Notes: generated by a model not told the origin, from the sequence alone. 64,000 nt of DNA from a virus (IMGVR_UViG_3300043773_002546:133310-197309), one strand, 5' to 3'. Numbered from the stretch's first letter, positions 2,604 to 49,605 are shown. Numbers and translations are program-made.

Positions 2604-3013
2604 GCGTGAACACGGACGATCTTCAGCATCGGATCGAATCGTCTGCGGCCTTGAAGCGCGCGGCCGGGCAACTTCGCGATGAGGTGGCTTTCCGCGCCGA
2701 CAAGTCCGTGGAATTCGATCCGATGCTGATTATTATGATTGTTTCAATCATCGTGCAGCTCATTATTCACTGCCGTGAAACCAATACCAGCGACGAGGTG
2801 CGGCAGAACATCCGCGACCTCCGCGCGCTGCCGGTTAGGCGTTTGCTCCGCCTGCGGCGTAAACTAAATACGTTGTGGCGCGAGAAGTGTCGGGGCTCGG
2901 AGGTCCAGCCGGACAACCCGCTTCTGGCCGCCGTCTACGAACTCTCGGAAACCGCCGACGACGCGGCGATTGATGAAATCATGCGGCTCGCGGAGAACTC
3001 CGGCGCCGCCTAA
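2600..3013 (+). CDS. Hypothetical protein with one hydrophobic helix
   Basis: ATGA overlap with the previous stop; FDPMLIIMIVSIIVQLIIHC segment. Confidence 0.6.
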   Translation: MSVNTDDLQHRIESSAALKRAAGQLRDEVAFRADKSVEFDPMLIIMIVSIIVQLIIHCRETNTSDEVRQNIRDLRALPVRRLLRLRRKLNTLWREKCRGSEVQPDNPLLAAVYELSETADDAAIDEIMRLAENSGAA

Positions 3014-3041
3014 CAATATTACTCGCAAGGATGCGAACTAT

Positions 3042-3854
3042 ATGGCACGGACGCCACCCGCACAGCATGTCTTGCCGACGTCGGAAATTCTGCGAAAGCT
3101 ACACGGCTTTGGCTACTTCGGCGACAAGACCTGGGCTCAGGTTCGCAACATCAAAGGCACCGAGCTGACGAAAGCTATTCGTGAGTACCAGCGCTTTCAC
3201 GGCTTAGATCCCAACGGCCAAGTGAATCCGCAGACGGCGCACGTCTTAGAGCGCCGCCGCTGCGGTTTGCCGGATTTCAACTTTTCGGCGGGCGACCGGG
3301 TCTGCAAGTGGCCCCATCGCGACATCAAGTACTACGCCGACATCAAGCTGCCCGGAATCAGCGACGAGCAGGCCAAGCAAGCCTACGACATCGCTTTTGC
3401 CCAATGGGCGGCCGTGTGCAACATTGAGCCCGTGCCGGTGGACTCGCACACCAAGGCGAACATCTACGCGCGCAGCGGCGTGGGTAAGAAAAACGGCTTA
3501 GACAATCGCGGCGGCACGCTTGCTTGGAGCGAGTTGCCCTGCGACGTGCACGAAAACATTCAGCTCGATCAGATGTACGACGAGGCGGAAGCGTGGAGCT
3601 TTAATATGGCCGTCGCCGTAATCTGCCACGAGGTCGGGCACGCGCTGGGGCTGCCGCATTTGGCCAACGGCAATCTTATGGCGCCCTACTACGACCCGAA
3701 CGTTACCGCGCCCCAGGAAGGCGACATCCGGGAAATTGTGGATCTTTACGGCAAGCGCAAAAAGCCGTATTCGTCGATGAAAGACTCGTCGGTGCATCTG
3801 GGCGGCACGCTTATTATCAACGGCAAACCGTACGTGCTCGTTCCGAAAACCTGA
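3042..3854 (+). CDS. Matrixin (M10/MMP-like) zinc metalloprotease with propeptide and cysteine switch
   Basis: HEVGHALGLPH (HExxHxxGxxH), Met-turn LMAP, RRCGLPD cysteine switch, N-terminal PG_binding_1/MMP-prodomain-like helices (AIREYQRFHGLDPNGQV). Start placed at ATG 3042 after AAGGA; the track start 2970 overlaps the upstream gene. Confidence 0.9.
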   Translation: MARTPPAQHVLPTSEILRKLHGFGYFGDKTWAQVRNIKGTELTKAIREYQRFHGLDPNGQVNPQTAHVLERRRCGLPDFNFSAGDRVCKWPHRDIKYYADIKLPGISDEQAKQAYDIAFAQWAAVCNIEPVPVDSHTKANIYARSGVGKKNGLDNRGGTLAWSELPCDVHENIQLDQMYDEAEAWSFNMAVAVICHEVGHALGLPHLANGNLMAPYYDPNVTAPQEGDIREIVDLYGKRKKPYSSMKDSSVHLGGTLIINGKPYVLVPKT

Positions 3855-7562: not shown

Positions 7563-7919
7563 GTGAGTCTGCGCAAATTTCACAGCGAAATGGGCGGCGC
7601 CCAGCACGGCGGTGCCCGGCTGAGCTGGCCCGGCACGCCCGAGGGTTTTCCGGTCATTAACCGATCGGAGCACGCGGACCTCAAGCAGGAAGAGACCGAA
7701 AACCTCGACCTGCGGATGGATTACAAGTCCAAAATGTTCGAGCTGTGGGACGCGGCGCAGAAGGCAGAATTCGACGACATAAATGATAAGATAGTCAACG
7801 GTTGGTACCTGTTGCAGAAGCGCAGCGACAACTGGGACGCAGAAAACAAACATTATCGCGTATGGCTGGAGTGGTGCCAGATTTACGGCATGATTCCGCC
7901 TTCGAGGGCGCAACGATGA
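7563..7919 (+). CDS. Hypothetical protein
   Basis: GTG start with SD AAGGAGG; 118 aa, aromatic-rich C-terminus. Confidence 0.65.
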   Translation: MSLRKFHSEMGGAQHGGARLSWPGTPEGFPVINRSEHADLKQEETENLDLRMDYKSKMFELWDAAQKAEFDDINDKIVNGWYLLQKRSDNWDAENKHYRVWLEWCQIYGMIPPSRAQR

Positions 7920-8842
7920 GCACAAAACAAGCGGGCATCGGTGATTTTCTGTTTCCCGGAGTTTTCGGCCCGGATAACCATCCGGCCATGCAAGCCGCCG
8001 CCGAAGCACGAGAAAAGCTTAAGCAGCAGACAGAAAGCGCCCTGACAAGCCACTACGGCCAGAACATGCGTCAAATGCTCGGCTACGGCCTGGCGGGCGG
8101 CGCTGGCGCCACGGCGCTGTACCATGCCTTGCGCGCCCTGAGAAAGCCCAAGAAGAGCGAGACGAAGTACGACGAGATGAACTCTGGCGCTCCAGTGATG
8201 GCTAAGGAAGCCCTCAGCCTGGACGAAATGCTGGGAAAGCTCGTGCCTACGACCATGACCGGTCTGCCTAGTGGCGATGGTGCCGGTAACGGCGGCGCCC
8301 CGGCGGCGCCAGGACTTCCGGCGGACCCGCACATGTACCGTCCGACGTGGGCTGCACTGGCCGCGCTGGGCGCTGGCGGCTTAGGGCTCTATGGCGGCAA
8401 TAAGGCTGTCGGCGCGCTGGTCAACCGTAATAAGAAAAAAGATAGTCAGGCGGAAATCGACGAGGCCCGCAAAGCCTATTACGACGCCTTGCTGGGCGGC
8501 GATAAGAAAGCTGCTGCGCTAGACGACGTGTACGCTGCTTGGCAAGAGAAGCATGCCAACCCGCTGACGACTGTCCGCGACGCCTTTAACTCGACCGCCG
8601 ATTTCTTTGGTAGGACAGTTCCTCAAAGCGCGCACGCCCTGGCGCTGCTTGGCGCTTTGGGCGGCGGGGCGTACAGCGCCAAAAAGATGTACGACTGGAC
8701 CAAGTCCCGCAGCGAGGGCGAGAATCTCCGCAAAGCCCAGGCATCTAAGGCGCGGATGAAGGGCTTGCCAACGACGTGGGTGGATCCTGAAGAGCTGACG
8801 CGGATTAAAGAACTCGCGGCGCAAGCTGACAATGAGCAGTAA
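7916..8842 (+). CDS. Glycine-zipper, Cys-free protein with K-x-A-delimited segments (candidate ejection protein)
   Basis: ATG 7916 overlaps the upstream stop (ATGA); begins MSTKQAG; three Gly-rich hydrophobic helices, each segment preceded by KQA, KEA or KKAA/EKHA. Confidence 0.6.
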   Translation: MSTKQAGIGDFLFPGVFGPDNHPAMQAAAEAREKLKQQTESALTSHYGQNMRQMLGYGLAGGAGATALYHALRALRKPKKSETKYDEMNSGAPVMAKEALSLDEMLGKLVPTTMTGLPSGDGAGNGGAPAAPGLPADPHMYRPTWAALAALGAGGLGLYGGNKAVGALVNRNKKKDSQAEIDEARKAYYDALLGGDKKAAALDDVYAAWQEKHANPLTTVRDAFNSTADFFGRTVPQSAHALALLGALGGGAYSAKKMYDWTKSRSEGENLRKAQASKARMKGLPTTWVDPEELTRIKELAAQADNEQ

Positions 8843-8844
8843 CA

Positions 8845-11800
8845 ATGCCAGATCCGATCAATCTAGCGCCCGCTCAGCCTCCGCAGCGCGCATTCGGCGA
8901 CGTTAACGCACTGCGCAATAATATCTTTGAGCGGTCGTTACAACACGCCTCGACGCTCGAGCCTATCAAGAATGACCTGTACACGCTCCAGCTGAGCGAC
9001 GTGCAGTACAAGGGCCCGGAGCGCTACACGAAGGCCGACCAGAAGAAAGCCGTGCTCACTCGCGGCTCGTTGGCCCGCAAGCTTGTGGGCACCTGGAACC
9101 TCGTTGACAACAAGACCGGCCAGCAGGTTGCCCAGCGTCAGCAGACGATCGCTAGCGTGCCATACCTGACCGACAGCGGCACGTTTGTGAACAAGGGCGT
9201 GGAGTACACCCTGGCGCACCAGATGCGGCTGCGGCCCGGCGTGTTCACCCGCGAGAAAGACAACGGCGAGCTAGAGGCGCATGTTAACGTGCTGCCCGGC
9301 AAGGGCCGCATGCACCGGTACTTCCTCGACCCGAAGACGGGCGTGATGAAGATCAACATTGGCCAAGCGCAGATTCCGCTTATGCCGCTCTTAAAAACGC
9401 TGGGCGTTAGCGAGGGCGATATTCGCAAGTCGTGGGGTAACGAGCTGACGGCCGTGAACATGCAGCAGGGCGACGCGGGCACGCTCGACAAGCTTTATCA
9501 GCGCCTGGTGTACAAGCAAGAGCCTGGCAGCGACGCCTTGGCCAAGCAGAAGGCCATCGCCGCTGAGTTCGCCAAGATTGAGCTGGACCCCGAGGTTACC
9601 AAGCGGACTCTCGGCCAGCCCTACACCCGCATGACGCCCGAGGTCATTCTGGCGACGACAAAAAAGCTCATTGCGCTAAACCGCAAGGAAACCGACCCGG
9701 ACGATCGCGATTCGCTGGCTTACCAGTCGGTCGTTGGCCCCGAGGACCTGCTCTCGGAGCGCTTTACCAAGGACAAGGCCACGCTGCGTCAGCTGCTCTG
9801 GAAAGCCACGGCCAAGAAAAGCCTCGACCATATTCCTACGGGCGTGTTCAACAAAGCGCTCAACGCCGCGCTGATCGGCTCCGGGTTGGGCAGCTCACTC
9901 GAGGAGATTAACCCCGCAGAGATCTTCGACCATCAGACCCGCGTGACGCGACTTGGCGAGGGCGGCATCGGCTCGCTCGACGCCGTGCCCCAGGAATCCC
10001 GCAGCGTGCAGCCAAGCCACTTGGGTTTTGTGGATTTTCTGCGGACTCCCGAGTCTGGCAAAGTCGGCGTCGACATGCGTTTTAGCCGCGGCGCCATGAA
10101 GGGCAGAGACGGCAAGATTTACACGCCAGTAGTGAACATGCAAACCGGCGCTACGGAGTACAAGACGCCCCAAGAACTGGCGGATACGCCGTTGGCTTTT
10201 CCTGGCGAAGAGAAGAGCAAGCTCCCGATGGTTGCGGCGCTGGTGGGCGGCAAGATGAAGTACGTCCCCCGTGAAGAAGCGCAGTTCTCGCTGCCGCACA
10301 TGGACAACTCTTTTTCGGCGCTCTCGAATATGGTCCCCATGAAGAGCATGATGAAGGGACACCGAGTGATCATGGGCAGCCGCATGTTCACGCAGGCACT
10401 GCCGCTGGTGGACGCCGAGGCGCCGCTGGTGCAGTCCGCCCGGGCCGACAACCCCGGTGAAAGCCACGAGGACGAGATGGGCGGCAAACTCGGCGCCGTC
10501 CGTGCCGACGTTCACGGCCAGGTGGTCTCTGTCTCGTCTGATGAGATCGTCGTTCGCGACCGTGACGGCAATAAGAAAAGCATCGAACTCTACAACGACA
10601 TGCCGTTTAACCGGAAGACTTTCTGGACGCAGAAGCCCACGGTTCAACCCGGCGATACGATCAAGCCCGGCCAGCTGCTCGCGCATTCCAACTTCACTGA
10701 TAAGCAAGGAACAGCGGCGCTGGGCAAGAATCTCCGTGTGGCGTATGTGCCCTTCCGCGGCAAGAACTACGAAGACGCCGTGGTCATCAGTGAGTCAGCA
10801 GCCAAGCGCCTCACGAGCGAGCACATGTACCAGCACGAGGCCGAATGGGACGACCAGACCCACGTCGGCAAGAAGGCGTTTCTGTCTTTGTTTCCGGGCG
10901 AGTACGACAAGAAGGCGCTCGCCAACTTCGACGACAAGGGCGCCATCCAGAAGGGCACGGTCGTGAACTATGGCGACCCGCTTGTGCTCCAGGCCAAGGC
11001 GAAAGAGACAACTTACGGCAAGGTTCATCGCGGCCGCGCCGGAAACTTCACCAACGAGACACTCACCTGGGAGCACCACACGCCGGGCGTCGTGACCGAC
11101 GTCGAACACACCGACAAGGGCGTCAGCGTTGTAGTCAAAAGCCAGGCGCAGATGGAGGTCGGCGACAAGCTCACCGGTCGCTTCGGCGACAAGGGCGTTG
11201 TGGCCGACGTGATTCCGGACCACCAGATGCCCCAGGACAAAGACGGCAATCCGTACGAGGTCCTCGTCTCGCCGCTGGGCCTAATCTCCCGCGTGAACCC
11301 CTCGCAGGTCATCGAAGCCGCGCTGGGCAAAGTCGCTGCGAAGACCGGCCAGCCCTTCAAGCTCAAGGACTTCGATGACGAGAACGACCTGATTGAGATG
11401 GCGCAGCGGGAGCTGGCTAAGCACGGGTTGAGCGATACCGAGGACCTCACCGACCCGGAGACCGGGCGAAAGATCAAAGGCGTGCTCACCGGCAGCCGCT
11501 TCTTTATGAAGCTCCATCACACGGCCGAGGGCAAAGGGCAGGGCCGCGCGATGGGCAGCTATACCGCCGAGGGCACTCCGGCCAAGGGCGGCAGTGAAGG
11601 CGCCAAGCGCGTCGGCATGCTCGACCTGGGCGCGCTTTTGTCCCACGGCGCCGGAAAGGTCATCCGCGACGCCAAAATGGTCCGCGGCCAGGCTAACCCC
11701 GAGTACTGGTCGCAGTTCATGGCCGGGTATACCCCGCCGCTGCCAAAAGTCCCGCACGTCTACGAGAAGTTTGTCGGGCAGCTCAAAGCTTCTGGCATTA

Positions 11801-13218
11801 ACGCTGTCCGCAGCGGGACGCGCACGAACATCATGGCGTTAACCGACAAGGACGTCGAGCAACTGGCCGGAGACCGCGAGATCACCAGCTCCGACACGGT
11901 CGACTGGAAGGGCAAGCTCAAGCCGATTAAGGGCGGACTGTTTGACGAGACGCTCACCGGCGGCCACATGGGCAACCGCTGGAGCAAGATTACGCTTCAC
12001 GAACCGATGCCCAACCCGGTCATGGAAGAGCCCATCCGCCGCACCCTGGGCCTGACCGAGAAAAAGTTTCGCGCCGTGCTGTCCGGGACTGACACGCTGC
12101 GCGACAAGACCGGCCCGCAGGCAATCGCCGAGGCCCTTGGTGCGATTAGCTTGCCCAAGGCAATCGAGCAGTGCCGCGAGGACATCAAGTCGGGCCGCAA
12201 GACCCTTCGCGACGCCGCAGTGCGCCGCTTGGGGTACTTAAAGTCCGCCGAGGCCGCGGGCGTGCATCCCAAAGACTGGATGCTCACTAAGATGCCGGTT
12301 TTGCCGCCGATGTTTCGCCCCGTCTCGACGATGGGCGCCAAAAAGCTGCCCTTGGTAGCCGACGCAAATTACCTTTACAAAGAGCTCCTCGACAGCAACA
12401 ACGCGCTCAAAGACGCTTCCGGCGCGTTGGCCGAGTACAGCGACGAGCGGCTAGGACTTTACGATGCCATGAAAGGCGTGACCGGGCTGGGCAGTCCCAC
12501 GCAGCCGAAGAATCAGGAACGGCAGGTAAAGGGCTTCCTGCAGCACGTTTTTGGCTCAAGCCCGAAGTACGGCACCGTACAGCGCAAGCTGCTTTCTACG
12601 ACCGTGGACCTGGTCGGCCGCGCGGTAATTACTCCTAACCCGGACTTGGACATGGATGAGGTCGCTTTGCCCGAGGACAAAGCCTGGGAGGTGTACAAGC
12701 CCTTCGTTGTCCGCGGGCTAGTCAGGCGCGGAATGCCGCGCATGCAGGCCCTGGACGCCGTCGAGCAGCGCAACAAGGCCGCCGCTGCTGAACTTCAGGG
12801 CCAGATGAGTTCTCGGCCAATCGTTATTAACCGTGCGCCCGTGCTGCATCGATACGGTATGATGGCGTTTTATCCAAAGCTCACCAAAAACAAGGTTATG
12901 GAGGTCAATCCGGTCATTACCAAGGGCTTTAACGCCGACTTCGACGGAGACGCGATGCAGTATCACGTTCCCAGCACAGAGGACGCCGCCAAGGAAGCCG
13001 TGGAAAAAATGCTGCCCAGCAAAAACTTGTTCGCGGCCGCCAGCTTCAAAGCGCACTACGTGCCGCAGGCGGATTTCCAGACAGGCGTTTACTTGGCATC
13101 TAGCCGGATTGACAAGAAAGCCAAGCCGCGTATTTTTCGTACCAAGCAGGAAGCCCTACACGCCTATCGCCGCGGCGAGATCGACGTCGACACCCCGGTA
13201 AATATTGTCGAGAGTTAA
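8845..13218 (+). CDS. Phage multisubunit RNA polymerase: complete beta fused to the N-terminal, catalytic half of beta'
   Basis: RpoB motifs SGTFVNKGVE..QMRLRPGV, TPESGKVG, MGSRMFTQALPL, GKNYEDAVVIS, GDKLTGRFGDKGVV, MKLHH; then RpoC motifs GGLFDE, PVLPPMFRP, NRAPVLHR and intact NADFDGD (12931-12951). Confidence 0.95.
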   Translation: MPDPINLAPAQPPQRAFGDVNALRNNIFERSLQHASTLEPIKNDLYTLQLSDVQYKGPERYTKADQKKAVLTRGSLARKLVGTWNLVDNKTGQQVAQRQQTIASVPYLTDSGTFVNKGVEYTLAHQMRLRPGVFTREKDNGELEAHVNVLPGKGRMHRYFLDPKTGVMKINIGQAQIPLMPLLKTLGVSEGDIRKSWGNELTAVNMQQGDAGTLDKLYQRLVYKQEPGSDALAKQKAIAAEFAKIELDPEVTKRTLGQPYTRMTPEVILATTKKLIALNRKETDPDDRDSLAYQSVVGPEDLLSERFTKDKATLRQLLWKATAKKSLDHIPTGVFNKALNAALIGSGLGSSLEEINPAEIFDHQTRVTRLGEGGIGSLDAVPQESRSVQPSHLGFVDFLRTPESGKVGVDMRFSRGAMKGRDGKIYTPVVNMQTGATEYKTPQELADTPLAFPGEEKSKLPMVAALVGGKMKYVPREEAQFSLPHMDNSFSALSNMVPMKSMMKGHRVIMGSRMFTQALPLVDAEAPLVQSARADNPGESHEDEMGGKLGAVRADVHGQVVSVSSDEIVVRDRDGNKKSIELYNDMPFNRKTFWTQKPTVQPGDTIKPGQLLAHSNFTDKQGTAALGKNLRVAYVPFRGKNYEDAVVISESAAKRLTSEHMYQHEAEWDDQTHVGKKAFLSLFPGEYDKKALANFDDKGAIQKGTVVNYGDPLVLQAKAKETTYGKVHRGRAGNFTNETLTWEHHTPGVVTDVEHTDKGVSVVVKSQAQMEVGDKLTGRFGDKGVVADVIPDHQMPQDKDGNPYEVLVSPLGLISRVNPSQVIEAALGKVAAKTGQPFKLKDFDDENDLIEMAQRELAKHGLSDTEDLTDPETGRKIKGVLTGSRFFMKLHHTAEGKGQGRAMGSYTAEGTPAKGGSEGAKRVGMLDLGALLSHGAGKVIRDAKMVRGQANPEYWSQFMAGYTPPLPKVPHVYEKFVGQLKASGINAVRSGTRTNIMALTDKDVEQLAGDREITSSDTVDWKGKLKPIKGGLFDETLTGGHMGNRWSKITLHEPMPNPVMEEPIRRTLGLTEKKFRAVLSGTDTLRDKTGPQAIAEALGAISLPKAIEQCREDIKSGRKTLRDAAVRRLGYLKSAEAAGVHPKDWMLTKMPVLPPMFRPVSTMGAKKLPLVADANYLYKELLDSNNALKDASGALAEYSDERLGLYDAMKGVTGLGSPTQPKNQERQVKGFLQHVFGSSPKYGTVQRKLLSTTVDLVGRAVITPNPDLDMDEVALPEDKAWEVYKPFVVRGLVRRGMPRMQALDAVEQRNKAAAAELQGQMSSRPIVINRAPVLHRYGMMAFYPKLTKNKVMEVNPVITKGFNADFDGDAMQYHVPSTEDAAKEAVEKMLPSKNLFAAASFKAHYVPQADFQTGVYLASSRIDKKAKPRIFRTKQEALHAYRRGEIDVDTPVNIVES

Positions 13219-13232
13219 ACACGGAGGTTTAC

Positions 13233-13964
13233 ATGTTCACGGTTAATCCCGAACTGATTTCGCTCGCCCGCATGCGGTTCGAAAAGTCGGCCGTTGTGCC
13301 CCCGGGCGGCGGCGACCCGGCCATGATGGGCGGCGGCGCACCTCCGATGGACCCGGCGGCTATGGGCATGCAACAGCCTGCCGCCCCGGTTGACCCGGCT
13401 CAGGCGGCTATGGGCGCCGCTCCTCCTGCTGACCCCTCTCAGGATCCAACCGGCGCGATGGCCGCCGCAGCCCCGCCAGCACCGGCCCCGATGCCTCCGG
13501 CGACGCCCACCGCCGCCGCTCCTGGCCAGCAGAAGCTCAAACCCGAGCAGATGATGCAGATGCTCGACTACCGGCTTTACAACATGCAGCAGCAACTCAC
13601 GGCGATCATGAACGCCATGGGCGTGCAGGTCCCGCCGGAATCGCTCGTGCTACCCCCGGGCACGACCGGCGCGCCCCCGGCTGAGACGGCGCTGCCCGGC
13701 GGCCCGATGGCGCCGCCCCCGCCGCAGCAGGACCCGAACGCCCCGAGCGGCCCGCAACCTCCGGGCGGCCCGCTCCCTCCCGGCGGCCCGATGGATCCCA
13801 GCCAGATGCCCATGGACCCTAACGCGCCGAAGCAGGCCAACTGGTGGGATGTGGGGCGCCCCGTGGACAAGGCCGTGCACAGCAACCCCGACGCCCCGAC
13901 GGACCTGCAGACCAAAGCGGCTGCAATCGCCGCGCTGTGTCGGAGCATGACGCGTGCGCGTTAA
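13233..13964 (+). CDS. Pro/Met/Gln-rich, probably disordered protein
   Basis: SD CACGGAGGT; low complexity around a short helical core (EQMMQMLDYRLYNMQQQL); EKSA and KQA motifs near the ends. Confidence 0.65.
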   Translation: MFTVNPELISLARMRFEKSAVVPPGGGDPAMMGGGAPPMDPAAMGMQQPAAPVDPAQAAMGAAPPADPSQDPTGAMAAAAPPAPAPMPPATPTAAAPGQQKLKPEQMMQMLDYRLYNMQQQLTAIMNAMGVQVPPESLVLPPGTTGAPPAETALPGGPMAPPPPQQDPNAPSGPQPPGGPLPPGGPMDPSQMPMDPNAPKQANWWDVGRPVDKAVHSNPDAPTDLQTKAAAIAALCRSMTRAR

Positions 13965-14202
13965 ATTAACTCACAACCTGCAGCCTCACGAACAGTCGGC
14001 TCAGTCGATCATTCTGTATGACGATCTGGGAAATCCGATTTTCGTGGCCATGCAGCTTGATGAGTCGATTATCTACGCCGACGCCGGAGAGCCTGATTTT
14101 CACGCTATGCTTCGCGCCTTGGGCGTGAACAAAACAGTCATCGTCAACGAGATCACGCCAAAGCCCGTCAAGAACATGCTGTGGACGCCGGGAAATGCTT
14201 AA
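13954..14202 (+). CDS. Small hypothetical protein between the RNAP genes
   Basis: 82 aa, GTG start, overlaps both neighbours. Confidence 0.55.
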   Translation: MRVKLTHNLQPHEQSAQSIILYDDLGNPIFVAMQLDESIIYADAGEPDFHAMLRALGVNKTVIVNEITPKPVKNMLWTPGNA

Positions 14203-16099
14203 AACCACGCTTGGTCAAGTACTTTTAAACGAAACGCTTCCGGAAGATCTCCGGGACTACAATCGCGTTTTGACTAAAAAAGACATGGCCAAGCTGGCTA
14301 CGGACCTAGCCGAGAAGCACCCGGACAAGTACCGCCAGGTCATGAAGCGGCTGCACGACATCGGCCATGAAGCGGCTTACACCACCAATGGCCTTTCCTT
14401 CGGTCTCAAAGATATCAAACCGACGTTAGCAGCCCGCACCGCCCAGTTGCGCGTACACAAAGCGCTGCAGGGAATTCTCGCCGATAAAGGCATCGACGAA
14501 AAAGCCCGCACTTTGAAGATCCTTAAGCTGGCCTCCGAGGCGCAAAAGTCTCTCGTCGAGGACGTCTACAAAGAGGCCGAGAGCGCCGACAACCCGCTGG
14601 CGCATCAGGTTCGCGGCGTTTCGCGCGGCAACAAGTACAGTTTGAATTCTCTGATCGGCGCCGACATGCAGTACGTCGACCATAAGAACGACCCGATTCC
14701 GATTCCTGTAATGCGTGGCTACGGCCAAGGCCTGCGCCCTGTGGAGTACTTCGCCGGGGCCTTCGGCACCCGCAAGGGCGTCATGGACCTGAAGACAGCA
14801 ACTGCCGATGCCGGTTTCTTCGGCAAGCAGCTGGCGCAGATGACGCACAGACTTTTAGTGACCGACGACGACGACAAGGACGAAGAGCGCAACGCCACCG
14901 CCCACGACCGCGGCTTTCCAAGCGACGTGGACGACCCAGATAACGAGGGCGCGTTCTTGGCGCGGCCCGTCGGCCCATACAAGCGCAACACTCTTTTGAC
15001 GCCGAAGATTCTCCGCGAGCTCAAGGAACAGGGCGTCAAAGACATCCTGGTACGCAGCCCAACCGTGGGCGGCCCAGAGGACGGCGGCGTGTACGCTAGG
15101 GACGTTGGCTACAGGGAAAAGGGCAAGCTCCCGCCCGTAGGCGACTACGTGGGCATCGCCGCGGCTCAGGCACTTTCGGAACCGGTGACGCAGGCGCAGA
15201 TTAGCTCCAAACATTCCGGCGGCGTGGGCGGCGCAGGTTCAATCTCTGGCTTCAAGGCTATTAACGCTTTGGCGCAGGTCCCCAAAAAATACCCCGGCGG
15301 CGCTGCGCACGCCCAGATTGACGGCACGGTTCAAGAGGTGCGCCCCGCGCCCCAGGGCGGCTTTTACGTGCAGATCGACGGGCAGGAGCACTATGTCCCC
15401 ACAGACCGCGAGGTCTCGGTCAAAAAGGGCCAGACCCTCGAGGCAGGAGACACGATTTCCAGCGGCATGCCCAACCCCGGCGAAATCGTCCGCCACAAGG
15501 GCATCGGCGAAGGGCGCAGGTATTTCGTTCAGGCCATGCGTCAAGTGCTGCAAAACTCTGGCGTGTCGCCACATCGCCGTAACATCGAACTTCTCTCGCG
15601 CGGATTGGTAAATCATGTTCGCATGACCGACGAGCACGGCGACTATGCGCCGGACGACATCGTGCCCTACTCGATGATCGAACGGAGTTGGACGCCGCGG
15701 TCGGGCAGCGTGACCGGCGCGCCGAAAAGCCTTTCTGGGCATTATCTAGAGCGCCCCGTACTGCACTACTCAGTTGGTACAAAAATCGGTAAGGGCGTGC
15801 TTGCGAACCTGGAAAAATACGGCATCAACAATGTCGAGGCCCACAAAGAGCCGCCGCCGTTTCAGCCGGAAATGGTTCGCGGCATGGCAAATATCTCTAA
15901 CGACCCCGACTGGATGACCCGCATGCTCGGCTCGTACCAGCAGAAGGGCCTGTTAAACAGCGTACACCGCGGCCTATCCAGCGATACATCCGGATCGAGT
16001 TTCGTTCCCGCGCTGGCCCGCGGCGAAACATTCGGTGTTTCCGGCGCCACGAGCGGATGGCAGCCGCAGAACGATTTAGGTAGGATGAAAGGGCCCTAA
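14195..16099 (+). CDS. Phage multisubunit RNA polymerase: beta' C-terminal half (bridge helix, trigger loop)
   Basis: TTLGQVLLNETLP, GLRPVEYFAGAFGTRKGVMDLKTATADAGF (bridge helix), GIAAAQALSEPVTQAQISSKHSGG (trigger loop with His). Confidence 0.93.
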   Translation: MLKTTLGQVLLNETLPEDLRDYNRVLTKKDMAKLATDLAEKHPDKYRQVMKRLHDIGHEAAYTTNGLSFGLKDIKPTLAARTAQLRVHKALQGILADKGIDEKARTLKILKLASEAQKSLVEDVYKEAESADNPLAHQVRGVSRGNKYSLNSLIGADMQYVDHKNDPIPIPVMRGYGQGLRPVEYFAGAFGTRKGVMDLKTATADAGFFGKQLAQMTHRLLVTDDDDKDEERNATAHDRGFPSDVDDPDNEGAFLARPVGPYKRNTLLTPKILRELKEQGVKDILVRSPTVGGPEDGGVYARDVGYREKGKLPPVGDYVGIAAAQALSEPVTQAQISSKHSGGVGGAGSISGFKAINALAQVPKKYPGGAAHAQIDGTVQEVRPAPQGGFYVQIDGQEHYVPTDREVSVKKGQTLEAGDTISSGMPNPGEIVRHKGIGEGRRYFVQAMRQVLQNSGVSPHRRNIELLSRGLVNHVRMTDEHGDYAPDDIVPYSMIERSWTPRSGSVTGAPKSLSGHYLERPVLHYSVGTKIGKGVLANLEKYGINNVEAHKEPPPFQPEMVRGMANISNDPDWMTRMLGSYQQKGLLNSVHRGLSSDTSGSSFVPALARGETFGVSGATSGWQPQNDLGRMKGP

Positions 16100-16153
16100 G
16101 ACGCTAAATTAGTGTCCAGATCTGGTTAATTTGCTCGCCGCACGGAGGTGGCT

Positions 16154-18535
16154 GTGTACAACCGCAAGAATTCTCAGCCTGAGTGGAAGCACTGGCTCAA
16201 GGTTGCTCGTTCCCACGACCGCAGCCGTACCAAGCAAGCCGATATTGGCGGCAGCGGTGACAGCGCCTCGTTTGAGCAGGCGTTTTCAAACCTGGCGCAC
16301 GCTTACCTCCGCGACAGCGCCCCCAAGCTGCTGGACCATGAAATCGGTTTCCAGCTTTTGGACCGCAATAACGAGAACACTAAGGCAGTGGGCGTTTTTG
16401 CGTTTAAGGTCGGTTCCCAGTGGCTGTATGCCCCGGTGTTCTTCCTTAACGGTGAGCTCAAGGGCCACGAACTCCTGTACATCAAGAACCAGGACATGTT
16501 CGTGCCGTTGAAGGAAAACTGGGTTAACTACCTGATTAACCGCAAACCCAACATCCTGGGCAGCGGCGTTGATCGAAATCTGGGCGCGCGCGGTCAGCGA
16601 CAGCCTGACTTTACGCAGCTTTCGCGCAGCCCGGCCAAGTTTGGTTCGGCGCAGCCGACTCTCAAGGAAATGATGACGGCCGCGATGGGCGCGTTTGCCA
16701 AGACGGCCACAATGAACACCGCCGCCGCGTTTGCTGACATGGGCAAGTCGCTTGACCTGGGTAAGTTCCTTAAGGAAGCCCGGCTTGAGACAATTAACAT
16801 GCTGGTGAACACGTTCAAGCACGCTCCGGCCCTGGCCAAGGCGTTTGACGAGTTCCACGGACTGGACACGGTTAAGGAAGCTATCGCGCTGGCTAAGGCC
16901 CGCGCGGCGCAGCCGAAGATCGCTAGCGTGCTGGAAAGCGCGCCAAACAAGTCCGAGGCGACCAAGAGCCTGAAGGTGATCACGCTGGACGTGACCCTGC
17001 AGACCAAGCTGCCGCCCGAGACCACCGAAGAAGATCAGGAAAAGCTGCTGCGCGACGGCGTGCTGATCCTCGACCAGCGCGACCGCGACAACGTGTCTAT
17101 TCCCTACAACATCCAGGTCGAGAAGAAGCTTTTCAACCCGACCTGCTCCGGCCTGTACGACATTATTGTCAAGCCCAACAGCGTGGAGCGCGTCTACATC
17201 GCCGTGTTTCCGGTGGGCCCGGCCAAGCGCAGCGATTTCGTCACGGTGGTGCGCACCGAAGGCAAGCCGACGTGGGTCAACACCCGCGCCGACCGCGTCT
17301 TCTGCCTGGCGCACGTCGACGGAAAGGATTACGACGCGTGGTTTAACGGCCTGCCCGACGCCGACAGCGCCAGCAAGTCTGGCCGCTACATGGCGGTCGG
17401 CAAGAACGGCGACGCCACGGTTCCCTTCCGCGTCATCCGCGAATTGGGCAGTACGGAGTTCAGCGGCACGAGCTATGAAGTCCACATGGAGGACCATTCG
17501 AAGTTTCCTCCCAAGGGCCACATCTCGCCCTGCTGCTACAGCGACCCGCTGAATTACGACAAATACCGCGACGGCGAGCGAATTCATCTCAAGGGTAAGA
17601 AGGGCAGCCAGCTCCGTGCGAGCATGGGCGACATCTTCGTTCCCGAGAGTTTCAAGCTGCTTAAATGCGCCCCGGGCGAAGACGACGTACCGGCCAGCGA
17701 GCTGGGCAACGGCCCGGCCTGCGGCTGTGGCGAGAGCGAAGACCCGCCGCTGCTCCCCGGCACTCTGGCCGACGCGCAGCTTGAGATCATGGGCAAGACG
17801 GCAGCGTTGGAGGTATACCACAACGGCACCGAGGTGGTAATCAACAAGGCAGCGGCTATGACGCCAATCAAGGCGCTGGTCACGCTTGTCGAGCATCACG
17901 GCCTGCGTGAAGACGCCGCCCGCGAGATCCTCAAAACAGCGGCTGCCAAGCGGAAGTACAGCGGTCGGATTAAGTACGCCAATCCGTACGGCTCGCCGAT
18001 GATGATTAATGACGCGCCCGGCGCCCCGACTGATCCGGGCCCGGTAATGGGCGGCGAGACGATTATGGGCTCCAGCGTCCCGACGCAGCTGGGCATCGAC
18101 ATGGCTATGCCGGTTTCCGGCATGAGCGCGTCTCAAACGGACCGGCAGATCTACAACCCCAACACGCAGCTGGACAACAAGGCTATCCAGCAGGTGATGG
18201 AGGCCTCGCAAACGGGCCAGAAGGAAGTCTTCGACACGGCGATGATTGGCAGCATGCTGCGCGCTGTTCGCGACGACTCGATGGTCGACCGTTATATGGG
18301 CGAGCTCACCAAGGGCCTCGACAAGCTCGGCCGAATTTTGTTTATGTTCTACTGGCACGGCGATCGCTTCGCCGACCGTTACGGCAAAGCCGACATGCCG
18401 GAGCTAGAGGATTCGCTGCGCAACGCCTTCGAGATGTTGGGCGACGTCATCCTCTTCCTTAAGCAGAAGACCATCGAGCCGTATCCGGAAGAAGCCGGTG
18501 CCGACATTGATCTCAGCAACGTCGCAAACGCATAG
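16154..18535 (+). CDS. Large hypothetical protein, probably head-associated
   Basis: About 793 aa; GGAGG at 16144-16148 favours GTG 16154 over the track's 16148; several K-x-A motifs (KQA, KTA, KAA); no family recognised. Confidence 0.6.
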   Translation: MYNRKNSQPEWKHWLKVARSHDRSRTKQADIGGSGDSASFEQAFSNLAHAYLRDSAPKLLDHEIGFQLLDRNNENTKAVGVFAFKVGSQWLYAPVFFLNGELKGHELLYIKNQDMFVPLKENWVNYLINRKPNILGSGVDRNLGARGQRQPDFTQLSRSPAKFGSAQPTLKEMMTAAMGAFAKTATMNTAAAFADMGKSLDLGKFLKEARLETINMLVNTFKHAPALAKAFDEFHGLDTVKEAIALAKARAAQPKIASVLESAPNKSEATKSLKVITLDVTLQTKLPPETTEEDQEKLLRDGVLILDQRDRDNVSIPYNIQVEKKLFNPTCSGLYDIIVKPNSVERVYIAVFPVGPAKRSDFVTVVRTEGKPTWVNTRADRVFCLAHVDGKDYDAWFNGLPDADSASKSGRYMAVGKNGDATVPFRVIRELGSTEFSGTSYEVHMEDHSKFPPKGHISPCCYSDPLNYDKYRDGERIHLKGKKGSQLRASMGDIFVPESFKLLKCAPGEDDVPASELGNGPACGCGESEDPPLLPGTLADAQLEIMGKTAALEVYHNGTEVVINKAAAMTPIKALVTLVEHHGLREDAAREILKTAAAKRKYSGRIKYANPYGSPMMINDAPGAPTDPGPVMGGETIMGSSVPTQLGIDMAMPVSGMSASQTDRQIYNPNTQLDNKAIQQVMEASQTGQKEVFDTAMIGSMLRAVRDDSMVDRYMGELTKGLDKLGRILFMFYWHGDRFADRYGKADMPELEDSLRNAFEMLGDVILFLKQKTIEPYPEEAGADIDLSNVANA

Positions 18536-34304: not shown

Positions 34305-37124
34305 ATGTCGAGCTACGTCAAACCACAGGTTCTTGTTTTCCAGGAATTCCGCATCGTCCCCACGGAGATCACTGAGCCGCTGCGCGCTCACGTCTCCGGC
34401 CCGCACGCGATTCTCCATCGCTACAGCGACTCGGACGAGAAGAAGCTGTGCAAGCTCGGTCTGTATGACCGACTGAACGACACCTTCTACTCGTGGCCCG
34501 ACCGCATGGCCGGTTCGCGCGTCGACGACAGCTACGTCAAGGTGTTCATCGACGACGCCGAACTGCTTTATTACGAGCACACCATTGGTCAGATCGAGAC
34601 GACCATCACGGCCGTCTCCGGCAAGACCAACTGGATCGAGTCCAGCGACCTGTCTTTCAAGAGCAACGGCGCCGCCTACCCGCGTAGCGCCGTGTTTAAC
34701 GACCGCGACGTGCAGCTTGGTGACCGGGTCCACCTTCGCGCGGTGGACGTCGAAGACGACTGCACCGAGTACACACTGGACACCTACGTCACCGGTTTCG
34801 CCAGCGAGCTGGTGCCCGCGGAGGTCGAAGCGGCCCGCACTGAAGACAACAACCAGGCTACGGTTACCAACACCGGTTCTTACGTTAAGGTTGGCGGCCC
34901 GGACAATTGCGTGGACATCAGCGCTGCCGACTATAGCGATTACGACGGCCTCGTCGACGGCGACGTTGAAGAGGAGTACACGATCGAGGTTGTTAAGAGC
35001 TCGATCGCCGGTTGCACCGCCGCCCGTCTGCGCGTGACTAGCGCCAGCGGCAACGACGACGTGGCCGAAGTGACCCCCGAGGATTGGGGCGTTCCGACCG
35101 AGATCGGCACCCGCGGCCTGACGGTGACGTTCGACTACGACCCGGGCGCGGGTTGCTCAACCAGCGCTGAAGAAGACGGCGTCGATCCGGATATTTTCGT
35201 GACTGGCCAGAAGTGGCGCGTCACTGTGTCGCAGGCTTACACGGCTGTAAACGCCACCAGCGGCGGCGACTACGACGGCGAGAAGAACGACATCTACGTT
35301 GTCGAGTGCACCAAGGGCGGCGTGTGGGCTGATCTCCCCGAGGTCATGGTCCGCACGGTGAAGGGCCTGGACTTCTCCGGCCCGACCGAAGTGACTGACG
35401 ACAACGTGTTCGTGTCGATCGGCACGCACGGCGTGGAGATTAAGTTCCACGGCGCCAGCGTTGGCAATTCCGTTCCGGGTCTGCGTAAGGGCGACAAGTG
35501 GTACATCACGGTGGTCTCGAGCAAGGCGGGCCCGGTCCGCAAGCTCATCCTTCGCGACGATATTCCACAGCAGATCGCCAGCGCTGAGGACATGGACCTG
35601 CGCCTTTACATTGTTGACAACATCCAGGTTTCCAAGAACCGGGTGGGTTACGCGCCGACTACGAACTGGGAGACCGAGGCCACGCAGATCAACGTCAAGG
35701 AAGGCATCATTGCCTATCATCCTGAGTGGACGGACAGCGGCGTTGAGCAGCCTCTTGAGGTCCGCGGCGGCATGGTGTACGTCGAGTACCGCGAATGGCT
35801 CAGCGAACTGGCCGACGAGGTCAACGCGATCAGCGACGTGGCCGACATTGGCGTGATCAAGGGCCAGCTGCACCCGGACAACCCGCTGAAGTGGGGCGTT
35901 TACAAGGCGTTGGCCAACTCCAACGGCACCGCGGTGAAGTACACCGCCGTGGCCGAACACACCGACCTGGATAGCTGGGTTGAGGTGTTGGAGCGCATCA
36001 AGGGCCGCGACGACCTTTACAACCTCGTCCCGATGACCTTCGACGTGCGCGTGCATAACCTTTATGCCGCTCACATCGATGCCGAGTCGAACGAGTACGC
36101 CAACAATTGGAAGAGCGGTTTCTTCGCGCTGGCCGCGGAGCCCGTCAAGAAGATCGTGGGCGAGGGCGCGACGATCGGCGGCGTGTCAGGCAATGTGGTG
36201 GAAGACCCGGTTCTGGCAACCCTTGCCGACGATCCGGACGCTACCAACACCCAGTACACCCGTTTGACGGTCACGTCGGGCAACGGCTACTTCATCGCCA
36301 ATGAGGTCCAGGCGGGCGACATCGTTCGTTACAACTACACCGTCGACGGCTTCGGCGAGGAGCAGTACGAGGAGTACGTGGTTGACCAGGTGGTGTCGGA
36401 AAACACGCTGCTGCTTTACACCGGCGCAGACAATGCAGTCACAGAGCCGCAGCGCGTCGAGGTTTACCATAACCTCAACCGCAACGAGGTTGCTGAGGAC
36501 ATTGCCACGCGTGCCGGTGCGTTCAGCGACCGTCGCGTGTGCGCCGTGTGGCCCGATCAGGTCGGCGAAGCGGGCACCCTGCAGCCGGGTTATTACCTGG
36601 CGGCCGCGCTGGCCGGTTTGGCTTCGGGCGTTGTGCCCCACCAGCCGCTGACCAACGTGGAGGTGGCGGGCTTCGATGACTTCACCCGTAGCTACAAGTA
36701 CTTCAACGAGACCCAGCTCAACCGCATGGCGGAGGCAGGAGTGTGGATTGTGACGGAGGACAAGGACGGCACGCCGCACACGCGGCACGCGCTGACGACG
36801 GACAACCTCGACCTGAATCGTCGGGAAGAGATGATCCGCCGCAACGTGGACTCGATGTCTTACCTGTTCCTGCGTCGTCTGCGTCCGTACATCGGCCGCA
36901 CCAACGCCACGCCGCGGATGGTGACCCTCCTGGGCACCGAGGTGACGAAGTTGATTGACTTCTTCAAGAACAATGGCAACACCGCCGAGCTCGGCGGCCA
37001 GCTCATCGACGGAACCGTGCGGACCCTGCGGATTCACCCGCTGCTCCGCGATCGTATCGAGATTGTTCTTGACCTGACGGTTCCGGCTCCGCTCAATAAC
37101 ATTGAGCTCCACTTGGTCGTCTGA
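34305..37124 (+). CDS. Contractile tail sheath protein
   Basis: 939 aa; sheath-type C-terminus (HALTT...EEMIRRNVD...YIGRTN...DLTVPAPLNNIELHL); followed by a tube-sized gene. Confidence 0.85.
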   Translation: MSSYVKPQVLVFQEFRIVPTEITEPLRAHVSGPHAILHRYSDSDEKKLCKLGLYDRLNDTFYSWPDRMAGSRVDDSYVKVFIDDAELLYYEHTIGQIETTITAVSGKTNWIESSDLSFKSNGAAYPRSAVFNDRDVQLGDRVHLRAVDVEDDCTEYTLDTYVTGFASELVPAEVEAARTEDNNQATVTNTGSYVKVGGPDNCVDISAADYSDYDGLVDGDVEEEYTIEVVKSSIAGCTAARLRVTSASGNDDVAEVTPEDWGVPTEIGTRGLTVTFDYDPGAGCSTSAEEDGVDPDIFVTGQKWRVTVSQAYTAVNATSGGDYDGEKNDIYVVECTKGGVWADLPEVMVRTVKGLDFSGPTEVTDDNVFVSIGTHGVEIKFHGASVGNSVPGLRKGDKWYITVVSSKAGPVRKLILRDDIPQQIASAEDMDLRLYIVDNIQVSKNRVGYAPTTNWETEATQINVKEGIIAYHPEWTDSGVEQPLEVRGGMVYVEYREWLSELADEVNAISDVADIGVIKGQLHPDNPLKWGVYKALANSNGTAVKYTAVAEHTDLDSWVEVLERIKGRDDLYNLVPMTFDVRVHNLYAAHIDAESNEYANNWKSGFFALAAEPVKKIVGEGATIGGVSGNVVEDPVLATLADDPDATNTQYTRLTVTSGNGYFIANEVQAGDIVRYNYTVDGFGEEQYEEYVVDQVVSENTLLLYTGADNAVTEPQRVEVYHNLNRNEVAEDIATRAGAFSDRRVCAVWPDQVGEAGTLQPGYYLAAALAGLASGVVPHQPLTNVEVAGFDDFTRSYKYFNETQLNRMAEAGVWIVTEDKDGTPHTRHALTTDNLDLNRREEMIRRNVDSMSYLFLRRLRPYIGRTNATPRMVTLLGTEVTKLIDFFKNNGNTAELGGQLIDGTVRTLRIHPLLRDRIEIVLDLTVPAPLNNIELHLVV

Positions 37125-48789: not shown

Positions 48790-49605
48790 ATGCCCAGCAA
48801 CACCAGCAAACCATCGCCGTCAATCCTTGATGACGTGCCCATGCCTTTTTCGCAGCCGCCGAAGATTCACGGCGTTGGCGATGATTTTCTACCCGCGTAC
48901 CAGACCTGGCAGACGCAACGCACGCCGCAGAACAACACAGCGCTGTTAAAAACCTTGCAGCCGGTCTTGGATACGGCCGTCACCAGTTACGCGGGCGGCA
49001 ACCAGAGCCCGACAATCAAGTCGCGGGCCAAACTCATGGCGCTAAAAGCCATGGAGAGCTTTGACCCTAACCGCGGCAACGTCCGCACCCATCTGCTCAG
49101 CCAGCTCCAGAGCCTGCGGAGGCTTTCGGCGCAAGAGCAGAACATCATCCACCTCCCTGAGCAGGTCGGCCTGGACTTCCAAAACCTCAACGAGAGCGAG
49201 AACGAGCTGCGGGACAGCATGGGGCGCGACCCGACTGACGAGGAGCTGTCTAATCACACGAACCTTTCCGTACGTCGAATCCGCAAGATCCGCAAGTTCC
49301 ACCAGCCGATCTCCGAAGGCACAGTCGTCGGCCAAGAGAGCGACGAGAACGACCCGACGGACATCGCTAGCCAAGTGCCCGGCGGGGGCCATCGCGCAGC
49401 GGACGCCTGGATGAACTTTGTCTACGACGATCTGGGCGCTACTGACAAGTTGATCATGGATATGACCTTGGGCCGCAACGGCAAACGCCGCACGCCGACT
49501 CAGGAGATCGCCCGCAAACTGGGGATTACTCCCGGCGCCGTGAGCCAGCGTGCGGCCAAGATTCAAACGATGCTCGACAAGCGGTACACCCAAGGCGGAT
49601 TCTAG
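48790..49605 (+). CDS. Sigma-70-family (group 3-like) sigma factor
   Basis: Region 2 (ALKAMESFDPNRG), region 3 (MGRDPTDEELS) and region 4 HTH (TQEIARKLGITPGAVSQ). Confidence 0.85.
   Translation: MPSNTSKPSPSILDDVPMPFSQPPKIHGVGDDFLPAYQTWQTQRTPQNNTALLKTLQPVLDTAVTSYAGGNQSPTIKSRAKLMALKAMESFDPNRGNVRTHLLSQLQSLRRLSAQEQNIIHLPEQVGLDFQNLNESENELRDSMGRDPTDEELSNHTNLSVRRIRKIRKFHQPISEGTVVGQESDENDPTDIASQVPGGGHRAADAWMNFVYDDLGATDKLIMDMTLGRNGKRRTPTQEIARKLGITPGAVSQRAAKIQTMLDKRYTQGGF

Follow-up and report, generated by a model that had tools for sequence, protein, structure and literature searches.

An RNA polymerase of tailed phages with β fused to the catalytic half of β′ and the rest of β′ on a second chain

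Introduction

The multisubunit RNA polymerases of cells all use an α-like platform, and how phiKZ-type phage enzymes come together in its absence is still to be explained (PMC7598289). The multisubunit-RNAP-encoding Caudovirales (mReC), a group of metagenomic phages, have separate β (900–1563 aa) and β′ (899–1391 aa) proteins on every listed contig, the underlying filter having called for two proteins, neither shorter than 800 aa, and for NADxDGD in β′ (PMC7481178). The polymerases of crAss-like phages and of P23-45 are reported to be delivered in the virion. Among cultured phages, Salmonella phage Arash encodes gp206 (1525 aa) and gp216 (606 aa; OQ632216, PMC10585845), and Vibrio phage D69 encodes counterparts of 1527 and 609 aa. 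The Arash and Vibrio records label these chains simply 'beta' and 'beta′' or 'hypothetical', and the words 'fused' and 'fusion' are not used in the Arash paper (PMC10585845).

Here, we describe a polymerase with the same two-gene layout in an uncultured tailed phage with a genome of roughly 197 kb, which encodes the enzyme as two chains. Our window is a 64,000-nt stretch of this genome (IMGVR_UViG_3300043773_002546:133310-197309), and the locus had first been singled out, in an original prediction made from the sequence alone, as a β subunit running without a stop into half of β′.

Results

β and the catalytic half of β′ form a single chain

The locus comprises four plus-strand ORFs of 1457, 243, 82 and 634 aa, all of which were re-derived by translation at the coordinates originally claimed. 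The first, the β::β′N gene (8845..13218; about 160 kDa), carries Rpb2_3, Rpb2_6, Rpb1_1 and Rpb1_2 in one protein according to Pfam, meaning that the profile search proposed at the outset recovers both the Rpb2 and the Rpb1 domain sets in the same chain. Rpb2_6 covers residues 554–907 (E 1e-52) and the Rpb1_2 match (E 4e-25) spans NADFDGD. Compared with solved structures, the chain matches bacterial β first and then β′, in agreement with the earlier view of the enzyme as bacterial-like.

The β module (residues 1–988; 8845..11808, +) is complete, with an alignment that extends to position 1339 of the 1342 residues of Salmonella β (profile mapping). It contains the second-barrel motif GRFGDKG, which holds the conserved lysine, at residues 778–784, and closes with the β C-terminal motif (residues 974–988, nt 11764–11808). 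A six-residue linker, RSGTRT (residues 989–994; 11809..11826, +), lies where the junction had been expected, and the β′ N-terminal motif starts directly behind it at residue 995 (nt 11827). Linker length is constant within one residue across the clade, as judged from 19 aligned fused proteins that include those of Arash and Vibrio D69. The β′ N-terminal module (residues 995–1457; 11827..13215, +) corresponds to about residues 19–551 of E. coli β′ and bears NADFDGD at residues 1363–1369 (nt 12931–12951), all three aspartates of which are invariant in 16 relatives. Pfam, profile mapping and motif positions thus concur with the prediction that β and the catalytic half of β′, including both double-psi barrels, reside on one chain. 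The clamp helices are retained (residues 1175–1212), the zinc-binding domain is deleted (at residues 1030–1054), and the whole fused chain contains one cysteine.

The remainder of β′ is a separate chain

The 634-aa protein had been predicted to hold the bridge helix and trigger loop, and both align there. This β′C gene (14195..16099, +; about 69 kDa), identified by Pfam (Rpb1_5, E 2e-22) and solved structures, covers about residues 571–945 and 1180–1286 of E. coli β′, with the bridge helix at its residues 191–222 and the trigger loop, catalytic histidine included, at 323–343. It also carries the C-terminal clamp and jaw region; SI3 is missing. β′C is cysteine-free, non-cysteine residues taking the place of the second zinc site. 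As a single cysteine remains over both polymerase chains, both β′ zinc sites, of four cysteines each, have been lost.

In E. coli numbering, chain 1 stops at about β′ 551, within a few residues of its last aligned position, and chain 2 picks up at about β′ 571, beginning at the next aligned position. With no intein-like extra sequence at either split end, the two chains must therefore associate non-covalently. Protein trans-splicing could in principle join the β′ halves into one full, Helicobacter-like β-β′ chain, and relatives do carry inteins, while these genes hold a split intein at another position. Still, we consider this very improbable: the split ends show neither an N-intein of ~100 aa nor a C-intein of ~40 aa, the Cys/Ser/Thr nucleophile context is missing at the split, and in Arash the two genes lie nine genes apart, some of these on the other strand, with both chains detected as separate proteins.

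Two ORFs lie between the polymerase genes. The first (13233..13964, +; 243 aa) is of low complexity, rich in Pro, Ala and Met, and gave zero matches in Pfam and PHROG searches; homologues occupy the same place between the polymerase genes in closer relatives. The second (13954..14202, +; 82 aa), whose end overlaps the β′C start by 8 nt, is kept immediately upstream of β′C in related loci at 30–76% identity. Its AlphaFold model (pLDDT 82) is mostly β-strand and found no match at E 0.001 or better in a Foldseek search against the PDB. An assignment as an ω-like protein was considered and is unsupported, given the mostly β-strand model. No similarity was detected between this ORF and the small ORFs upstream of β′C in Arash and D69. 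Just downstream of β′C, a 795-aa protein (16148..18535, +) is the orthologue of the Arash virion protein gp218 and of VPHD69_0266 of Vibrio D69. It has no Pfam, PHROG or protein-atlas match, and its AlphaFold model (mean pLDDT 51) is too poor for a fold search; possibly, it is associated with the polymerase.

The layout is widespread among large tailed phages

The fused-and-split layout was seen in 73 independent IMG/VR loci, with the fused ORF upstream of β′C wherever the region was complete. In a library of 1.8 billion proteins, all of the best 150 clusters at 50% identity span the junction (150/150). More than 1300 database proteins match, and among the 120 listed, every one carries PF00562 together with PF00623 and most chains are about 1460 aa long. 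Cultured, finished genomes with the layout are those of Salmonella phage Arash and Vibrio phages D69, D148 and D181. Since independent assemblies and cultured phages alike show the unbroken frame, chance and assembly error are excluded. That assembly or gene calling had lost a stop, or shifted the frame, between distinct rpoB and rpoC genes has nothing in its favour beyond the general possibility of such errors in metagenome assemblies; given that the same frame and fixed-length junction recur in 73 loci, in 150 divergent clusters and in the four finished genomes of cultured phages, the probability of such an artefact is negligible. The layout is common to hundreds of related phages, and the clade consists of tailed phages of roughly 180–235 kb. 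The source phage fits the pattern of this Arash-like clade, in which a fused chain of about 1450–1530 aa comes with a β′C of about 610–640 aa, a σ homologue and a gp218-like gene behind β′C.

Two further apparent variants of the layout were examined and rejected. Relatives of ~1800 aa are not fusions to the upstream ORF 7802–8842; instead, the chain is interrupted at residue 404 by ~346 aa that are inserted in frame and bounded by intein ends. Likewise, β′C forms of 1369–1453 aa are not fusions to the 795-aa neighbour, which is present further downstream in the same loci. As a side observation, the best PHROG matches are families 24349 and 25354, whose lengths are those of unfused Firmicute β and β′.

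A β′ tree, built by a rapid LG+G4 search with no outgroup and with long branches and odd composition in the phage rows, places 12 fused-and-split phages and 66 bacteria on opposite sides of one branch (SH-aLRT 100). This separation suggests that the fused-and-split polymerases are likely to have had a single origin.

One polymerase set, and no recognisable α or ω

Rpb1_2 is present in one copy in the source genome and in one copy in 12 of 12 relatives. The original prediction noted no α subunit in the window, and this extends to the whole 96%-complete genome, where the α and ω profiles PF01000, PF01193 and PF01192 found nothing, although a very divergent or non-homologous substitute may escape such Pfam profiles. 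The α profile PF01000 also found nothing in 12 near-complete relatives. Together, the two chains probably constitute the sole phage-encoded core of bacterial type, standing in for β, β′, two α subunits and ω.

Alternatively, host α and ω may be used. The two phage chains would then form a hybrid enzyme on the host α dimer, perhaps with host ω or σ; the polymerase is of bacterial type and, if a platform is needed, host subunits are its obvious source given that phage α and ω were not found. However, identity to any bacterial β or β′ is only 26–33%, a long branch sets the clade apart from each of the 66 bacteria sampled, and conserved contacts with each host α would be unexpected because the hosts include both Salmonella and Vibrio. 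Packaging of the Arash enzyme with a phage σ, moreover, fits a self-contained enzyme, and the tether itself offers an alternative to α, tethered β-β′ being known in Helicobacter. We thus find a hybrid enzyme unlikely.

A phage σ factor and its predicted docking site

A σ70-family factor, homologous to Arash gp10 (E 2e-15), is encoded at 48790..49605 (+; 271 aa). It matches Sigma70_r3 above the cut-off (37.8 bits) and Sigma70_r4 at 22.8 bits in Pfam, as well as the σ factor family phrog_351, and homologues turned up in all of the searched relatives that encode the fused enzyme (22 of 22). Complex prediction of σ with β′N scored 0.62, compared with 0.00 for the best control; 58 of 80 solved complexes attain this mark, as do 2 of 110 mismatched pairs. 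For σ with β′N, contact agreement between runs was at least 54%, and the partner had a pLDDT of at least 64. The predicted interface sets σ residues 45–122 against clamp helices 1175–1207. The pair resembles solved σ/β′ complexes, and the pass may stem from model memory. A k-mer scan for 8-mers over-represented between genes yielded no convincing promoter consensus. Phage σ factors often redirect host polymerase, and by analogy this one could do so instead.

Probable packaging in the virion

In published proteomics of Arash virions, gp206 received 3516 spectra, the most of any protein, gp216 received 1210 and the σ factor gp10 467 (PMC10585845). Calculated from these published numbers, counts per residue are similar for gp206, gp216, gp217 and gp218, at about 1.9–2.4. 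In our window, the polymerase genes, the tail sheath and baseplate genes form one co-oriented block, and the structural block is collinear with the structural genes of Arash. By analogy, the core is probably packaged in the virion of the source phage as well.

Instead, the enzyme might be made after infection and transcribe just the middle and late genes; carry-over would then explain why it was detected in Arash particles. The Arash authors themselves name co-purification of abundant enzymes with particles as a possibility, and metabolic enzymes such as ribonucleotide reductases, along with RNA ligases, are also in the particle proteome (PMC10585845). Yet gp206 has the top spectral count, the per-residue counts of all four proteins are alike, the polymerase genes have structural genes as neighbours in Arash, in Vibrio D69 and in the source phage, and there is a single polymerase set. 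A purely post-infection role would leave early genes to the host enzyme, which is possible. On balance, a non-virion enzyme appears improbable.

Discussion

How might such an enzyme work? We propose that the covalent β-β′N tether would assume the assembly role that the α dimer has in bacteria, and that the phage σ would dock on the retained clamp helices and steer the enzyme to phage promoters. Core and σ would be packaged, as in Arash, so that transcription of the injected DNA could begin without the host polymerase; the phage enzyme would also handle later transcription, since no second polymerase set exists. For the source phage, activity, subunit composition and packaging are here inferred. 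Taken as a whole, we offer the following picture only tentatively, as a possible rather than a probable one: that the tether functionally replaces the α-dimer platform, giving a self-assembling, zinc-free, σ-dependent two-chain enzyme without α or ω, carried inside the capsid and injected, that belongs to an old, independent bacterial-type branch kept by environmental phages of a very large group, and that represents the smallest known σ-dependent holoenzyme.

If true, the clade would add to the question of assembly without an α-like platform an enzyme that is far more bacterial-like and apparently lacks α, ω and zinc. It would also illustrate how σ-type initiation can be kept while the division of the two largest subunits around the active site is redrawn. 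With cultured members infecting Salmonella Typhimurium and Vibrio, assembly, promoter recognition, packaging and injection are directly testable, and the enzyme could serve as a compact model of, or a tool for, σ-dependent transcription.

Comparison with known systems

A homologue survey, suggested with the original prediction, found the layout to be widespread. The literature searched gave no published description of it, and the arrangement may be new, as far as that literature shows, relative to known β-β′ fusions and β′ splits. The nearest relatives with cultured representatives, Arash and the Vibrio phages, share with the source phage the junction, the split point, the zinc-finger deletion and the σ homologue, and in Arash and D69 a gp218-like gene likewise follows β′C. 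They differ in sequence (31–33% identity over the fused chain, 25–26% over β′C), in the active-site motif (AADYDGD as opposed to NADFDGD), and in the genes between the polymerase genes, nine in Arash and two small ones in D69, none recognisably related to the 243-aa and 82-aa ORFs of the source phage.

The suggested membership in the lineage of Weinheimer and Aylward finds no support in the tables of that study. mReC phages are likewise metagenomic tailed phages with a bacterial-like, deeply diverged β/β′ enzyme (PMC7481178); their tables list only separate β and β′ proteins, a layout that the source phage does not have, and a search of these tables for the metagenome identifiers of our fused loci returned only other contigs. 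Many members of the fused-and-split clade would fail the mReC filter, and surveys that require separate β and β′ genes together with a strict NADFDGD motif have missed this large clade.

In Helicobacter rodentium, a frame of 2908 aa shows the same head-to-tail join of β C-terminus to β′ N-terminus. There, however, the whole of β′ is included and the zinc finger is kept, whereas the phage chain stops at about β′ 551, ~90 residues past the active site, with the zinc finger deleted. About 13 residues separate the aligned ends in Helicobacter, compared with the six-residue linker of the phage, which, unlike Helicobacter, drops about 18 N-terminal β′ residues at the junction. As for the split, the γ/β′ (RpoC1/RpoC2) enzymes of cyanobacteria and plastids and the phiKZ/AR9-type phage polymerases likewise divide β′ past the catalytic barrel and ahead of the bridge helix (PMC7598289). 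The phage chain ends at about γ 554–556 of 624–626, roughly 70 residues upstream of the cyanobacterial split, and its β is fused whereas cyanobacterial β is not. In phiKZ-type phages, β is also split, two sets (virion and non-virion) exist and there is no σ (PMC7598289), whereas the clade of the source phage has an intact β, one set and a σ factor. Finally, crAss-like gp66, the tape-measure-fused RNAP of P23-45 and YonO carry both barrels on one chain, as does the source phage. Unlike these enzymes, which are σ-less and too diverged from cellular β and β′ for ordinary sequence matching, the source-phage enzyme aligns end to end with the bacterial subunits and keeps the σ-binding clamp helices.

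A two-chain polymerase core

The stretch at 8845-16099 is taken up by four tightly spaced + strand ORFs. The first (8845-13218, +, 1457 aa) carries the Pfam domains Rpb2_3 and Rpb2_6 (the latter at residues 554-907, E 1e-52), followed by Rpb1_1 and Rpb1_2 (the latter with E 4e-25), and the last (14195-16099, +, 634 aa) carries Rpb1_5; the bridge helix lies at residues 191-222 of this chain, and the histidine-bearing trigger loop at 323-343. This search with Rpb1 and Rpb2 profiles thus bears out the original prediction of beta and half of beta' on a single ORF (here beta::beta'N), with the rest of beta' in a separate 634-aa gene (beta'C). Beta'C is free of an SI3 insert. Measured against solved structures, residues 21 to ~1008 of the fused chain correspond to bacterial beta nearly to its end, and residues 1062-1454 to bacterial beta' up to position 539 in B. 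subtilis or 829 in Thermus.

When a profile of 19 fused proteins was aligned to Salmonella beta and beta', residue 1339 of 1342 in beta fell directly before beta' residues ~14-33. In the window protein, the beta C-terminal motif (974-988) is followed by a six-residue linker, RSGTRT, and the beta' N-terminal motif from residue 995, exactly where the junction had been predicted. Among the 19 aligned proteins, including those of Salmonella phage Arash and Vibrio phage D69, junction length varies by no more than one residue. At the split, the first chain extends to beta' residue ~551 in Salmonella numbering, and the second picks up at ~571; nothing is lost, and neither end carries extra sequence, for which reason trans-splicing of the two beta' halves is effectively excluded. 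The beta' zinc finger is deleted, the second zinc site consists of other residues in all aligned clade members, and the whole enzyme contains one cysteine. Domain and motif mapping show a predicted two-chain catalytic core with every catalytic element intact.

Two ORFs without a match in Pfam or PHROGs lie between the polymerase genes. The 243-aa product of the first (13233-13964, +) has short conserved ends around a long Pro/Ala/Met/Gly-rich low-complexity middle, and its position between the two genes is kept in closer relatives. The second (13954-14202, +, 82 aa) overlaps the start codon region of beta'C by 8 nt and is conserved in position at 30-76% identity; it is modelled with confidence (pLDDT 82) as five strands plus a single helix, and the model matched none of the solved structures.

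Recurrence of the layout

A collection of 5.8 billion proteins yielded more than 1300 homologue matches; all 120 among the matches listed carry Rpb2 and Rpb1 domains, mostly in proteins of ~1460 aa, and many fused homologues sit on ~200-kb contigs. In a library of 1.8 billion proteins clustered at 50% identity, the best 150 clusters all span the junction. Relatives of the 634-aa chain occur in 73 IMG/VR loci (44-82% identity), and wherever the region upstream of beta'C is complete, the fused chain is encoded there either as a single unbroken ORF (1456-1501 aa) or in a form that mobile elements interrupt. The layout is likewise present, at 31-33% identity, in four cultured phages, namely Arash (gp206, 1525 aa; gp216, 606 aa) and Vibrio phages D69, D148, and D181. 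With the layout recurring across loci, clusters, and cultured phages, an assembly artefact is effectively excluded; for the fusion itself, assembly or gene-calling error is excluded by the fixed junction length at which the fused frame recurs in these independent sources.

Some relatives carry insertions in these genes. In loci L085 (3-1487 and 3401-5161) and L054 (1092-4295 and 4542-6338), the fused gene is broken into two pieces by a candidate natural split intein, at a site equivalent to residue ~920 of the window's fused chain (nt ~11600). The upstream piece reads ...GG(A/E)(Q/S)G, then CF... with ~95-115 extra residues that weakly match Intein_splicing (E 3e-4), and the downstream piece has ~41-55 extra N-terminal residues ending ...V(V/L)VSN, then SKR.... 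A 637-aa ORF without assigned function lies between the pieces in L085, and many database proteins of 580-590 aa resemble the downstream pieces. Contiguous inteins reside within the most conserved catalytic motifs of other relatives (L024:2904-3941; L066:1515-2585; L069:6840-8000; two inserts in beta'C of L075): after RTPE (residue 404), inside the GDKL-TGRFGDKG barrel motif (residue 777), and within the trigger loop (AQAL|SEPVTQ). LAGLIDADG endonuclease domains are present in two of these inteins, and database proteins can be as long as 3350 aa, with as many as five matched stretches. In one sub-clade, beta'C bears a C-terminal extension of ~730-840 aa (L054:7998-12359; L085:7860-12032; L064:7998-12107) that matched nothing in Pfam; fusion to the 795-aa neighbour is ruled out as its source, as that neighbour is found further downstream in the same loci.

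Subunit inventory and sigma factor

The beta' active-site domain occurs once in the genome, as it does in 12 of 12 relatives searched. Profiles for alpha and omega (PF01000, PF01193, PF01192) found no match in the whole genome, extending the earlier observation that the window lacks alpha to a genome that is 96% complete; PF01000 likewise matched none of 12 near-complete relatives and all 14 control genomes. By these searches, the phage is shown to encode no second polymerase and no recognizable alpha or omega gene, with a putative sigma factor conserved. This sigma70-family protein (48790-49605, +, 271 aa) exceeds the Pfam cut-off for Sigma70_r3, falls slightly under it for region 4, matches phrog_351, a family of sigma factors, and is homologous to Arash gp10 (E 2e-15). 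All 22 genomes with the fused enzyme, Arash and D69 included, have a homologue.

In bacteria, the clamp helices of beta' are the chief sigma-docking site, and they are kept at residues 1175-1212 of the fused chain. A predicted complex places sigma residues 45-122 on these helices, with a score of 0.62 against 0.00 for the best control (58 of 80 solved complexes score as well as this sigma pair, as do 2 of 110 mismatched pairs), at least 54% contact agreement between runs, and a partner pLDDT of at least 64. Many sigma/beta' complexes have already been solved, and the pass may therefore stem from resemblance to them instead of demonstrating binding. In an alignment by eye, sigma region 2 keeps the core-binding segment and lacks the aromatic residues with which bacterial primary sigmas contact the -10 element, reading THLLSQLQSL where E. 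coli sigma has a YATWWIRQAI-type segment; promoter recognition by the phage may therefore differ.

How might such an enzyme assemble? The covalent tether would bring the two barrels together 1:1 without an alpha platform, beta'C would dock onto the fused chain non-covalently, and the phage sigma would bind the clamp helices. Tethered large subunits that work have a precedent in Helicobacter, as our comparison with Helicobacter rodentium indicates, and working split ones are described for cyanobacteria and phiKZ-type enzymes in a polymerase review (PMC7598289). The main rival on this point is a hybrid enzyme that borrows alpha and omega from the host.

Probable virion association and genomic context

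In mass spectrometry of Arash particles, the fused chain gp206 gave 3516 spectra, the most of all proteins, followed by beta'C (gp216, 1210), gp218 (1149), the helicase gp217 (1148), and the sigma gp10 (467) (PMC10585845). Spectra per residue come to ~2 for each of gp206, gp216, gp217, and gp218. The holoenzyme would thus probably be carried in the particle and begin transcription on injected DNA. The main alternative, a polymerase that is not packaged, draws on the Arash authors' own warning that enzymes present in abundance may be carried along when particles are purified (PMC10585845). In the window, the polymerase genes form one co-oriented block with the genes for the tail sheath (34305-37124) and baseplate wedge (50561-52204), between which the sigma gene is located, and this block is collinear with Arash structural genes gp222, gp233, gp236, and gp13. 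Directly after beta'C, a 795-aa gene (16148-18535, +), orthologous to Arash gp218 and D69 VPHD69_0266, keeps its place across the clade; its product matched nothing in Pfam or PHROGs. Elsewhere, in ORF 2970-3854, a peptidoglycan-binding domain precedes a zinc metallopeptidase domain of the matrixin type (Peptidase_M10, E 2e-16); the product may be an enzyme associated with the virion that acts on the cell wall or in processing.

The window is the final 64 kb of the 197,309-bp record, whose completeness CheckV puts at 96%. The record's final bases (197274-197309; window 63965-64000) repeat sequence at 109-170 and 256-317, two copies spaced 147 bp near its start, which points to a terminally redundant and essentially complete genome. 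Six copies of an AT-rich palindrome, TTGATATCA(A/T), lie within and between genes of the window (1108, 24664, 30679, 40773, 52659, 60966; 0.06 expected), and some genome copies adjoin TTAACGCCC.

Evolutionary position and comparison with known polymerases

The top matches in cellular genomes scatter over many phyla (37-49% identity in a 115-residue active-site stretch), with no close relative among the best 80 in species-representative genomes. A beta' tree of 12 fused-and-split phages and 66 bacteria (1230 columns, quick LG+G4 search) sets all 12 phages apart by a long branch (SH-aLRT 100) and resolves them into two deep lineages, Arash with the Vibrio phages and an environmental group including the window, although depth and rooting are not readable from this tree, which has no outgroup, long branches, and odd composition in the phage rows. 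The topology is consistent with the layout having arisen once, outside the bacterial groups that were sampled.

Our literature search found no published description of the fused-and-split layout. In the Arash paper, the two proteins go under the names beta and beta', and neither "fused" nor "fusion" appears (PMC10585845), and the available portions of reviews on phage multisubunit polymerases and jumbo phages do not mention it. The multisubunit-RNAP-encoding Caudovirales (mReC) are listed only with separate, full-length beta and beta' (PMC7481178), whereas in the window phage beta is fused to beta'N, with beta'C apart. The active-site motif NADFDGD, universal outside the clade, is relaxed within it to xxD(F/Y/H/N)DGD with three invariant aspartates: NADFDGD in the window (12931-12951), AADYDGD in Arash and D69, and GADHDGD, GMDYDGD, NCDYDGD, and NMDFDGD among the variants elsewhere. 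Because of this relaxation before the three aspartates, the mReC filters (PMC7481178) would miss many members. The phiKZ-type beta' split reportedly shares the cyanobacterial site, according to the review (PMC7598289). The fused chain ends at residues 554-556 of cyanobacterial gamma (624-626 aa), which puts its cut ~70 residues upstream of the one in cyanobacteria. As in Helicobacter rodentium, the two subunits are joined head to tail, but more closely: in Helicobacter, ~13 residues separate the aligned ends and the zinc finger is retained, while the phage enzyme makes do with its six-residue linker and has the finger deleted.
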